Under the pieces are notes generated by a model, which saw nothing but the letters and a program-made list of their open reading frames with translations, made no database searches and was not told the DNA's origin. Of a stretch of 64,000 nucleotides of DNA, positions 52,135-53,980 are shown one piece after another. Location: NCBI RefSeq assembly GCF_055900595.2, contig NZ_CM148325.1; one strand, given 5' to 3'. The translations under genes and the position numbers were made by a program. How positions within the stretch are numbered: the stretch's first letter is position 1; every line of letters begins with the position of its first letter.

Positions 52135-52788
52135 ATGAATCAGACGCTACTTTCCTCTTTTGGTACGCCTTTCGAACGTGTTGAAAATGCACTGGCTGCG
52201 CTGCGTGAAGGACGCGGTGTAATGGTGCTTGATGATGAAGACCGTGAAAACGAAGGCGATATGATCTTCCCGGCAGAAACCATGACCGTTGAGCAGATGG
52301 CGCTGACCATTCGCCACGGTAGCGGTATTGTTTGCCTGTGCATTACTGAAGATCGCCGTAAACAACTCGATCTGCCAATGATGGTAGAAAATAACACCAG
52401 CGCCTATGGCACCGGTTTTACCGTGACCATTGAAGCGGCTGAAGGTGTGACTACCGGTGTTTCTGCCGCTGACCGTATTACTACCGTTCGCGCAGCGATT
52501 GCCGATGGCGCAAAACCTTCTGATCTGAATCGTCCTGGCCACGTTTTCCCACTGCGCGCGCAGGCGGGTGGTGTGCTGACGCGTGGCGGCCATACTGAAG
52601 CGACTATTGATCTGATGACGCTGGCAGGCTTTAAACCGGCTGGTGTGCTGTGTGAGCTGACTAATGACGATGGCACGATGGCGCGTGCACCAGAGTGCAT
52701 TGAGTTTGCCAATAAACACAATATGGCGCTCGTGACTATTGAAGACCTGGTGGCATACCGTCAGGCACATGAGCGTAAAGCTAGCTGA
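52135..52788 (+). CDS. ribB: 3,4-dihydroxy-2-butanone 4-phosphate synthase RibB
   Basis: 217 aa, DRENEGD motif. Confidence 0.95.
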
Positions 52789-52826
52789 AAACCGCTGCTT
52801 AATTTACCGCGTTAATCAATAAATAT

Positions 52827-52850
52827 CCTCCGGCATAGCCGGAGGTTTTT
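52827..52850 (+). terminator. ribB intrinsic terminator
   Basis: CCTCCGGC-ATA-GCCGGAGG followed by TTTTT. Confidence 0.7.
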
Positions 52851-52868
52851 CAAATGCGCCTGTAAGGC

Positions 52869-53575
52869 TCTGTTACCAGCCGCGCCCTAACAGGCGCATA
52901 CGATCTGACATTTGCATTCAACTTCGTTACTTACGGCCCGTAAACGGGCTGCCCGGATATGGAATCGATAACTGCTCCCCCATTTTATCCTCTTCAAGCT
53001 GGTGCTTTATGTAGTCCTGTATCTTCGCCGTGTTCTTACCCACCGTATCGACATAGTACCCTCGGCACCAGAACTCCCTGTTTCTGTATTTGAATTTCAA
53101 ATCCCCAAACTGCTCGTAAAGCATCAGACTGCTTTTCCCTTTCAGATATCCCATAAAGCCGGATACGCTCATTTTGGGTGGGATTTCCACAAGCATATGG
53201 ATATGATCTGCGCAGCACTCTGCTTCCAGAATCCGTACGCTTTTCCACTCACACAGCTTTCTCAAAATACTGCCTATCGCCCTACGCTTCTCTCCGTAAA
53301 ACGCCAGTCTTCGGTATTTCGGCGCAAAAACTATGTGATATTTACAGTTCCAGCGGGTGTGCGCTAAGCTCTTTTCGTCCCCCATTGGGACCCCCTTTTG
53401 ATTTCTTGTTTGACACTTGCAGTTGCCAGACCGCAAGGTGTTTTAACAAATCAAAAGGGGTTTTAATAACTGGCTCAAAGCTGAAAGCTTTCCGGAACCC
53501 CCAGCCTAGCTGGGGGTTTTCTGTGCACAAGAAACCGAAGCTATTACTGGCTTCGGTTTTTATTTTGCTCTTGTT
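52869..53575. mobile_element. IS200 copy (about 0.7 kb)
   Basis: 152 aa IS200-type TnpA plus characteristic structured left end: terminator hairpin AAACCGAAGC...GCTTCGGTTT (53532-53559), hairpin AACCCCCAGC...GCTGGGGGTT, and a long stem pairing with the RBS; boundaries estimated from the expected ~707 bp size. Confidence 0.75.
52927..53385 (-). CDS. tnpA: IS200 transposase TnpA (Y1 HuH)
   Basis: start at ATG for MGDEKSLAHTRWNCKYHIVFAPKYRR; HIHMLVEIPP HuH motif; 152 aa. Confidence 0.9.
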   Translation of the reverse strand: MGDEKSLAHTRWNCKYHIVFAPKYRRLAFYGEKRRAIGSILRKLCEWKSVRILEAECCADHIHMLVEIPPKMSVSGFMGYLKGKSSLMLYEQFGDLKFKYRNREFWCRGYYVDTVGKNTAKIQDYIKHQLEEDKMGEQLSIPYPGSPFTGRK

Positions 53576-53761
53576 ATGCAAGATGTTAATTCCTCTTCTC
53601 TTTCTATGAGAAAATTTCATTAATATCAGGCATTCTTTTCCATTATGATCAAAATCATATAATTGTTCCGTTATTATGCGACCATATGAATATATCCGAA
53701 AAAGGATATGTGAATTTTATGCGCTAAATGTTTAGTATTGTTAAATATTAAGGGTAAAAGG

Positions 53762-53932
53762 ATGTTTATCGCCTGGTACTGGATTGTATTGATTGCTCTG
53801 GTTGTGGTGGGTTATTTACTGCATTTGAAACGTTATTGTCGGGCGTTTCGTCAGGACAGAGACGCACTGCTTGAAGCGCGGAATAAATACTTAAACAGTA
53901 CGAGAGAAGAGACAGCCGAGAAGGTAGAATAG
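53762..53932 (+). CDS. small (56 aa) single-TM protein, unassigned
   Basis: ATG at 53762 after AAGGG RBS; MFIAWYWIVLIALVVVGYLLHL TM helix then charged tail; terminator hairpin downstream. Confidence 0.5.
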   Translation: MFIAWYWIVLIALVVVGYLLHLKRYCRAFRQDRDALLEARNKYLNSTREETAEKVE

Positions 53933-53949: not shown

Positions 53950-53980
53950 CAGAAGTTGTCCATGCGCTGGACAACTTCTG
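53950..53980. terminator. bidirectional hairpin terminator (small ORF / zupT)
   Basis: CAGAAGTTGTCC-ATGCGCTG-GGACAACTTCTG perfect 12 bp stem. Confidence 0.6.

Follow-up and report, generated by a model that had tools for sequence, protein, structure and literature searches.

The window, the whole stretch of 64,000 nucleotides analysed here, carries at positions 52820-53530 a complete element of the IS200 group, 711 bp long and with tnpA on the minus strand, which is an ordinary intact IS200 copy. Very probably it is an intact, multi-copy insertion sequence, an isoform of E. coli IS200C with tnpA as its only gene, whose recent transposition placed it in the ribB 3' untranslated region, at the very foot of the terminator hairpin. 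IS200 is a well-known element, and the sole part of our results worth following up is the possible target rule, according to which such elements land at the foot of terminators. The coordinates of the element, its parts and its neighbours are collected in Table 1.

Table 1. Features of the IS200 copy and of the ribB-yqiD region in the window (LE, left end; RE, right end).
Feature	Position	Strand	Remarks
IS200-group element, isoform of IS200C, complete	52820..53530 (LE 53530, RE 52820)	-	Borders from empty site and alignments to copies
tnpA, Y1 HUH transposase, 152 aa, intact	52927..53385	-	IS nt 146-604; stop codon 52927-52929
LE subterminal perfect hairpin, AACCCCCAGC-TAG-GCTGGGGGTT	53496..53518	-	IS nt 13-35; whole: AACCCCCAGCTAGGCTGGGGGTT
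tnpA 5'UTR stem-loop	53392..53460	-	IS nt 71-139; arms 53392-53407 and 53445-53460
RE subterminal hairpin, CCTCCGGC-TAT-GCCGGAGG	52827..52845	.	IS nt 686-704
Interrupted palindrome, ATGCGCCTGT...ACAGGCGCAT	52854..52899	.	IS nt 632-677; arms 52854-52863 and 52890-52899; internal to the IS
Antisense ORFs of 121 aa and 143 aa		+	Inside the IS, overlapping tnpA; from a mechanical ORF list
ribB (3,4-dihydroxy-2-butanone-4-phosphate synthase)	52135..52788	+	Upstream neighbour; stop 31 nt from the IS right end
Native ribB intrinsic terminator, GAAACCGAAGC-TATTACTG-GCTTCGGTTTTTATTTT	53531..53565	+	Whole: GAAACCGAAGCTATTACTGGCTTCGGTTTTTATTTT; cut off from ribB by the IS
FMN riboswitch RF00050	51883-52031	+	Upstream of ribB; 120.9 bits vs gathering score 66.2; annotated in E. 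coli relatives
yqiD, 56-aa predicted membrane protein	53762..53932	+	Downstream neighbour; 231 nt from the IS left end; 'protein YqiD' in RefSeq relatives
zupT		-	In the region beyond yqiD

The borders were set by exact prefix and suffix matching of the window to an isogenic empty site with 100% identical flanks. The left flank is identical up to position 52819 and the right flank from position 53528 onwards, with a 3-nt overlap, and the inserted block 52820-53530 is precise: relative to this empty site there is no target duplication and no deletion beyond the overlap. The resulting junction ambiguity of at most 3 nt (CAA on the plus strand, TTG on the minus strand) makes 52818-53528 an equally valid placement, and judging from the sequence several cleavage points within TT/TTG would be compatible with the junctions. 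The empty site of K-12 yields an identical junction. Alignments to more than 50 independent copies from E. coli, Yersinia pestis (IS1541), Dickeya and Vibrio all end at IS nt 1 and 711. The ends of the element, TTGTGCACAG... and ...GGAGGATATTTA, form no terminal inverted repeats, and tnpA, the sole gene, takes up 459 of the 711 bp; there is no tnpB. The element is oriented opposite to ribB, and its left end lies against the ribB terminator hairpin.

A megablast search with the interval 52700-53800 found it intact in none of 5426 complete E. coli genomes, that is, the site is occupied in none of them. Throughout these genomes the flanks match as two pieces with a gap of approximately 712 bp, and the middle part matches IS200 copies located elsewhere. 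The 4.8 kb upstream in the window are 100% identical in three genomes, including that of strain Z0117EC0005, which provided the isogenic empty site and in which the spacing between ribB and yqiD is 262 bp.

These borders differ from those of the first-pass annotation, which had placed the element at 52869-53575, just after a ribB terminator at 52827-52850, and had taken an interrupted palindrome of 44 bp for either the right end of the IS or its target structure. We give this anatomy practically no chance of being correct. It agrees with the published IS200 length of 707 bp, and the hairpin at 52827-52845 with the five T residues behind it does resemble, and probably acts as, a terminator after ribB. 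However, the empty sites of K-12 and of the isogenic strain lack 52820-53530 and keep 53531-53575, and both the hairpin and the palindrome occur in IS200/IS1541 copies in unrelated contexts and hosts. Compared with the isogenic empty site, both ends of the annotated span were shifted by 45-49 bp. Since the true borders lie some 45-50 bases to the left, the supposed ribB terminator hairpin belongs to the IS, where it is present in every IS200/IS1541 copy examined, and the real one is on the far side, within 53531-53575. This segment, previously counted as part of the IS, is host DNA: it contains the native ribB terminator, and K-12 as well as every other empty site has it. Thus, the IS sits after the stop codon of ribB but before the terminator, not behind it. 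The palindrome itself exists, with arms displaced by 1-3 nt from the coordinates first given, but it represents neither the right border of the IS nor the target structure: it lies inside the element, in the right-end region, and is conserved in nearly all relatives examined.

Other parts of the annotation agree with our results. The copy had been called a full-length IS200, and the element is indeed complete, with TnpA matching both Y1_Tnp and transpos_IS200. The left-end terminator hairpin and the stem sequestering the ribosome-binding site were both found (53496-53518, and arms 53392-53407 and 53445-53460, respectively). K-12 had been said to lack IS200; its record has a match to the flanks only, at one place, and the proposed comparison of the ribB-zupT interval revealed empty sites without 52820-53530 in both K-12 and the isogenic strain. 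An alignment with Salmonella IS200, also suggested there, gave approximately 91% identity between the non-coding ends and those of an IS200F copy; compared with E. coli IS200C copies, these ends are 96% identical. With the ends similar and the element complete, neither poor identity outside tnpA nor truncation was observed.

The predicted transposase matches the Pfam Y1_Tnp model (E=8e-37) and the NCBIfam equivalog transpos_IS200 (144 bits, cut-off 55). It aligns with the solved structures 2ec2, 2f4f, IS608 TnpA 2a6m (E=3e-19) and 2xm3 (5e-16). The HUH motif is H61-I-H63, and the candidate catalytic tyrosine is Y125, located within the C-terminal QDYIKHQ. Residue C58 is the consensus residue, whereas a 99.7% identical copy (L002) has R58 at this position.

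The layout of the element (hairpin at nt 13-35, stem-loop at nt 71-139 and the STnc490/art200 region) agrees with that published for Salmonella IS200, which has a bidirectional terminator at nt 12-34, a stem-loop at nt 69-138 and the RNA art200 antisense to the 5'UTR (PMC4513863, PMC5435999). The left-end hairpin corresponds to this bidirectional terminator and is presumably the hairpin bound by TnpA. In the predicted fold (minimum free energy -64.1 kcal/mol, z = -5.0), the 5'UTR stem pairs the Shine-Dalgarno sequence AAGGGGG with the upstream CCCCUUUU. The Rfam family STnc490 (RF01405) matches 53395-53518 over its full model (1-124) with 146 bits against a gathering score of 56, and this match is overlapped by the 5'UTR stem-loop. 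Another Rfam candidate, STnc240 at 53505-53568 (26.9 bits against a gathering score of 55, E=0.45), was rejected, as it is just the shape of the native ribB terminator.

At the other end of the element, the hairpin CCTCCGGCATAGCCGGAGG lies 7 nt from the right border and is followed on the plus strand by TTTTT (52846-52850). It scores as terminator-like on that strand, with a fold of -16.9 kcal/mol, and with its T run it has the form of an intrinsic terminator located 38 nt behind the ribB stop codon. The hairpin is conserved in all 18 distinct elements compared, and in a Vibrio copy a T-A pair of its stem is replaced by A-T, a compensatory change. The left-end and right-end hairpins (CCCCCAGCTAGGCTGGGGG and CCTCCGGCTATGCCGGAGG, respectively) agree at 14 of 19 positions, with compensatory differences, and each is preceded by a run of A residues, GAAAA at the left end and GAAAAA at the right end. 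The interrupted palindrome, which can alternatively be drawn with 14-nt arms at 93%, sits between the tnpA stop codon and the right-end hairpin. The copies from E. coli, Yersinia, Dickeya and Vibrio keep its outer 8 bp (ATGCGCCT/AGGCGCAT); an Edwardsiella copy (L068) has lost the 5' ATGC of the left arm through a deletion. Among the 18 distinct elements this region hardly varies, too little for covariation analysis. The palindrome could serve as a 3' structure of tnpA or as a part of the right end needed in transposition.

Among known elements, IS200C is the closest relative. Copies annotated as such are 95-96% identical to the window element over nt 1-711 and share its length of 711 bp, the ends TTGTGCACAG...GGAGGATATTTA, the hairpins and the target context. 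The two differ by approximately 4% in nucleotide sequence and at 4-7 of 152 TnpA residues, the window protein having D3, L27, A28 and G31 where IS200C has N, Q, V and R. PGAP names the IS200C protein 'IS200/IS605-like element IS200C family transposase' and the window variant only 'IS200/IS605 family transposase'. The Salmonella IS200F copy is approximately 91% identical over nt 10-670, with a nearly identical left-end hairpin and 5'UTR stem-loop. Salmonella IS200, on which the experimental work was done, differs in the first 10 nt of its left end (TTGTCTATGG vs TTGTGCACAG in the window) and in its published length (707 bp vs 711 bp). Because the aligned Salmonella plasmid copy is truncated at the right end by another IS, right ends were compared using E. 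coli and Yersinia copies. IS1541, the IS200 orthologue of Y. pestis and Y. pseudotuberculosis, is 710 bp long and 87% identical over its full length. Its right-end hairpin is identical, its left-end hairpin is the pattern with which copies were retrieved, and its target context is the same hairpin and T run as at the window site; it forms head-to-tail tandems in Y. pestis, whereas none were seen in the window. More distantly, IS608 and ISDra2 resemble the window element in having a Y1 HUH TnpA and subterminal hairpins at both ends, and resemble IS200 in having no inverted repeats, no target duplication, a conserved sequence 5' of the left end and a preferred +1 base. Unlike IS200, they carry tnpB; their targets are TTAC or TTGAT, with no reported need for a hairpin, and their hairpins, in contrast to the perfect ones of IS200, are imperfect palindromes.

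At least 40 E. coli genomes contain copies 100% identical to the window element, each at 8-17 places. Z0117EC0005, with its empty ribB site, has 17 places with 100% identical copies. Overall, IS200 sequences were found in 2642 of the 5426 complete E. coli genomes. The intact reading frame, the identical copies elsewhere and an occupied site that is unique among 5426 genomes together point to a recent transposition within the lineage. Judged by these comparisons, the insertion is recent and strain-specific, a known element at a new site. We consider it improbable that the copy is an inert relic that is no longer mobile. IS200 is notoriously inactive in laboratory assays (PMC4513863), which would fit a relic, but the window copy has an intact reading frame with consensus residues such as C58 and both ends complete, it is 100% identical to other copies, and the site is polymorphic between genomes with identical flanks. 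Still less probable is that a ribB-zupT segment with the IS already in it was brought in by recombination or horizontal transfer: the flanks are 100% identical to those of empty-site strains (60 nt and 244 nt at the junctions, and 4.8 kb upstream), there is no donor with an occupied site among the 5426 genomes, and the lineage already has identical copies at many places. The ribB insertion can serve as a strain-specific marker, and a lineage with 8-17 identical copies signals recent movement of an element that is mostly considered dormant.

A further copy, 99.7% identical, is located in a prophage of E. coli strain 48956 (L002, 1517-2227), between the genes for head-tail joining and the large terminase. 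This prophage-borne copy indicates that IS200 can travel on phage genomes.

At the ribB locus, the target is marked by the hairpin of the native terminator, against which the left end lies. This hairpin folds at -20.3 kcal/mol on the plus strand and -15.4 kcal/mol on the minus strand. Read on the minus strand, the junction is AAAACCGAAGCCAGTAATAGCTTCGGTTTC|TTGTGCAC, that is, a hairpin followed by TTTC|TT; the T tract here (TTTCTTG) is poorer than at most other sites. The insertion has displaced this terminator by 711 bp from ribB. Transcripts of ribB would now end at the hairpin and U5 supplied by the right end, 38 nt after the stop codon. In the empty site approximately 33 nt separate the ribB stop codon from the start of the native hairpin; since the right-end hairpin is at about the same distance, the insertion is expected to be nearly neutral. 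From the sequence, then, termination of ribB should take place at the right-end hairpin and U5, with little effect on ribB. The annotation of this transcription unit is corrected accordingly, its predicted 3' end being now an IS-borne hairpin. The transposase gene, in turn, should be kept silent, because transcription towards it would have to pass two upstream hairpins, the native terminator read backwards and then the left-end hairpin.

Downstream, yqiD has a promoter-like site at 53620-53649 and, on the plus strand, sits behind the left-end hairpin and the native terminator. A 13-bp hairpin (CAGAAGTTGTCCA...TGGACAACTTCTG) at 53950-53980, between the convergent yqiD and zupT, is probably a shared terminator.

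The position of the window copy at a terminator hairpin is shared by most of its relatives. We surveyed the flanks of other copies, read on the tnpA-sense strand; the copies were retrieved by the exact left-end hairpin pattern, and all of them consequently share the GAAAA run. In a set consisting mainly of Y. pestis copies, 36 of 44 have a strict GC-rich hairpin ending 0-6 nt before the left end, compared with 329 of 3000 random 45-mers (11%) and 185 of 1870 TTTNTT sites (10%; Fisher p ~1e-27). The flank logo has T at positions -4, -3 and -2 in 37, 44 and 37 of the 44 copies, so the left flank reads TTTN in 37-44 of them (TTTC in the window), and TT follows the right end at +1/+2 in all 44. 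A hairpin adjoining the right end on the other strand was seen in 4 of 44 copies, which is the background level. All nine E. coli IS200C copies are located directly behind a hairpin with a T run, five of them just downstream of a co-oriented gene (creD, dsbA twice, emrB and plaP), at its terminator. A hairpin and T run also precede the left end in one Salmonella IS200F copy and in 52 of 64 copies from Oxalobacter, Mailhella, Desulfovibrio, Vibrio, Brenneria and Bacillota metagenome-assembled genomes (MAGs). The survey provides a simple rule for where IS200-type elements land: in the T tract behind a terminator hairpin.

Taken as a whole, the survey covers approximately 118 copies of the IS200/IS1541 type, found in Enterobacterales, Vibrio, Oxalobacter, Desulfovibrionaceae and Bacillota MAGs; with few exceptions their left ends adjoin a GC hairpin and T run in one fixed orientation, and the right end is always followed by TT. 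An IS1541 copy that separates pheL from pheA in Yersinia has been described (PMC3082878); its location in the pheA attenuator region would fit the same rule. A similar niche is occupied by group IIC introns, which sit just downstream of terminator motifs consisting of an inverted repeat followed by Ts (PMC1702495), like the left end of IS200. These are unrelated retroelements with a ribozyme and a reverse transcriptase, and the likeness is one of niche only.

What produces this pattern is a separate matter. We propose, tentatively and with considerable doubt, that transposases of the IS200 group target the T tract immediately 3' of a GC-rich hairpin, a terminator in single-stranded form. Such a target would imitate the right end of the element, and the A-run guides would recognise it. 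In IS608, each cleavage site is recognised by pairing with a guide tetranucleotide located 5' of the respective hairpin, and there is also a preference for the base that follows the cut (PMC5934647). Following this IS608 paradigm (PMC5934647), TnpA dimers would bind the related left-end and right-end hairpins on the tnpA-sense strand, and this strand would be excised as a circle and pasted 3' of a T-rich cleavage sequence (TTTN, then TT). The cleavage sequence would pair with the A-run guide (GAAAA or GAAAAA) located just 5' of each hairpin, the A runs pairing with TTTN at the left flank and with TTTA at the tip of the right end, with T preferred at +1. The preferred target would be a GC-rich hairpin followed by a T tract, i.e. 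an intrinsic terminator, which resembles the right end of the element (hairpin and ATATTTA|TT). Guide-target pairing and peel-and-paste transposition in IS200 are thus assumed by analogy with IS608, and the window copy is presumably active.

A different explanation, which we judge unlikely, is that the location at terminators results from selection: insertion would be random at T-rich sites, and only harmless, silent insertions behind terminators would persist. Such survival could account for part of the hairpin association. Terminator-proximal intergenic positions are indeed expected to be neutral, and a preprint (10.1101/2025.07.22.666184) interprets terminator-like sequences found upstream of IS200/IS605 elements as a brake on expression of the transposase. 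On the other hand, the spacing is precise to the nucleotide, with the stem ending 0-6 nt from the left end and the T run adjoining it. The orientation relative to the hairpin and T side is fixed in approximately 100 copies from distant hosts, just 10% of TTTNTT sites have such a hairpin, and hairpins next to the right end on the other strand stay at background (4/44). Moreover, the prophage copy L002, located between two genes without an obvious terminator, still adjoins a GC-rich hairpin.

If structure targeting is true, it would explain the nucleotide-precise placement behind terminators from Enterobacterales to Desulfovibrionaceae and Bacillota, the head-to-tail tandems of Y. pestis, and harmless insertions such as the one at ribB, where the right end of the IS would supply a substitute terminator. 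Should the rule be mechanistic, it would extend the guide-and-target logic of IS608 to a structured target and help to explain the silent persistence of these elements at high copy number. An explicit target rule for IS200 was not found in the full-text literature searched, and older IS1541/IS200 papers, which were outside the reach of that search, may state one; we do not claim the rule as new.

The junction between the IS and the host, at 53515-53536, is a 22-nt near-palindrome, GGTTTTCTGTGCACAAGAAACC, in which the target T tract and the foot of the hairpin are complementary to the A run and the first bases of the left-end hairpin. Such complementarity is what an A-run guide would predict.

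The strand on which transposition would take place can be related to replication. GC skew is positive on the plus strand, which in this single case suggests that the plus strand is the leading strand and that the active (minus) strand of the IS would lie on the leading-strand template, opposite to the lagging-strand preference reported for IS608 and ISDra2 (PMC5027513).

In Y. pestis NCTC5923, IS1541 forms head-to-tail tandems or partial tandems at four loci (L071, 1986-3405; L073, 11930-13349; L070, 1-1044; L117, 3910-4719). The second copy starts 0-1 nt after the right end of the first (...GGAGGATATTTA|TTGTGCCC), behind the right-end hairpin and ATATTTA. This arrangement suggests that the right end mimics a target or that the tandems are retained circle junctions.

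Finally, the exact 23-nt left-end hairpin was found at the ends of contigs in MAGs of Bacillota, Peptococcaceae, Oxalobacter, Saccharibacteria and Elusimicrobiaceae (L012-L024, L029-L033, L005-L008, L010, L060 and L061). Only the first 50-110 nt resemble the enterobacterial element, with 78-100% identity, and these sequences represent either distant relatives of IS200 that have conserved the left-end hairpin or binning artefacts.
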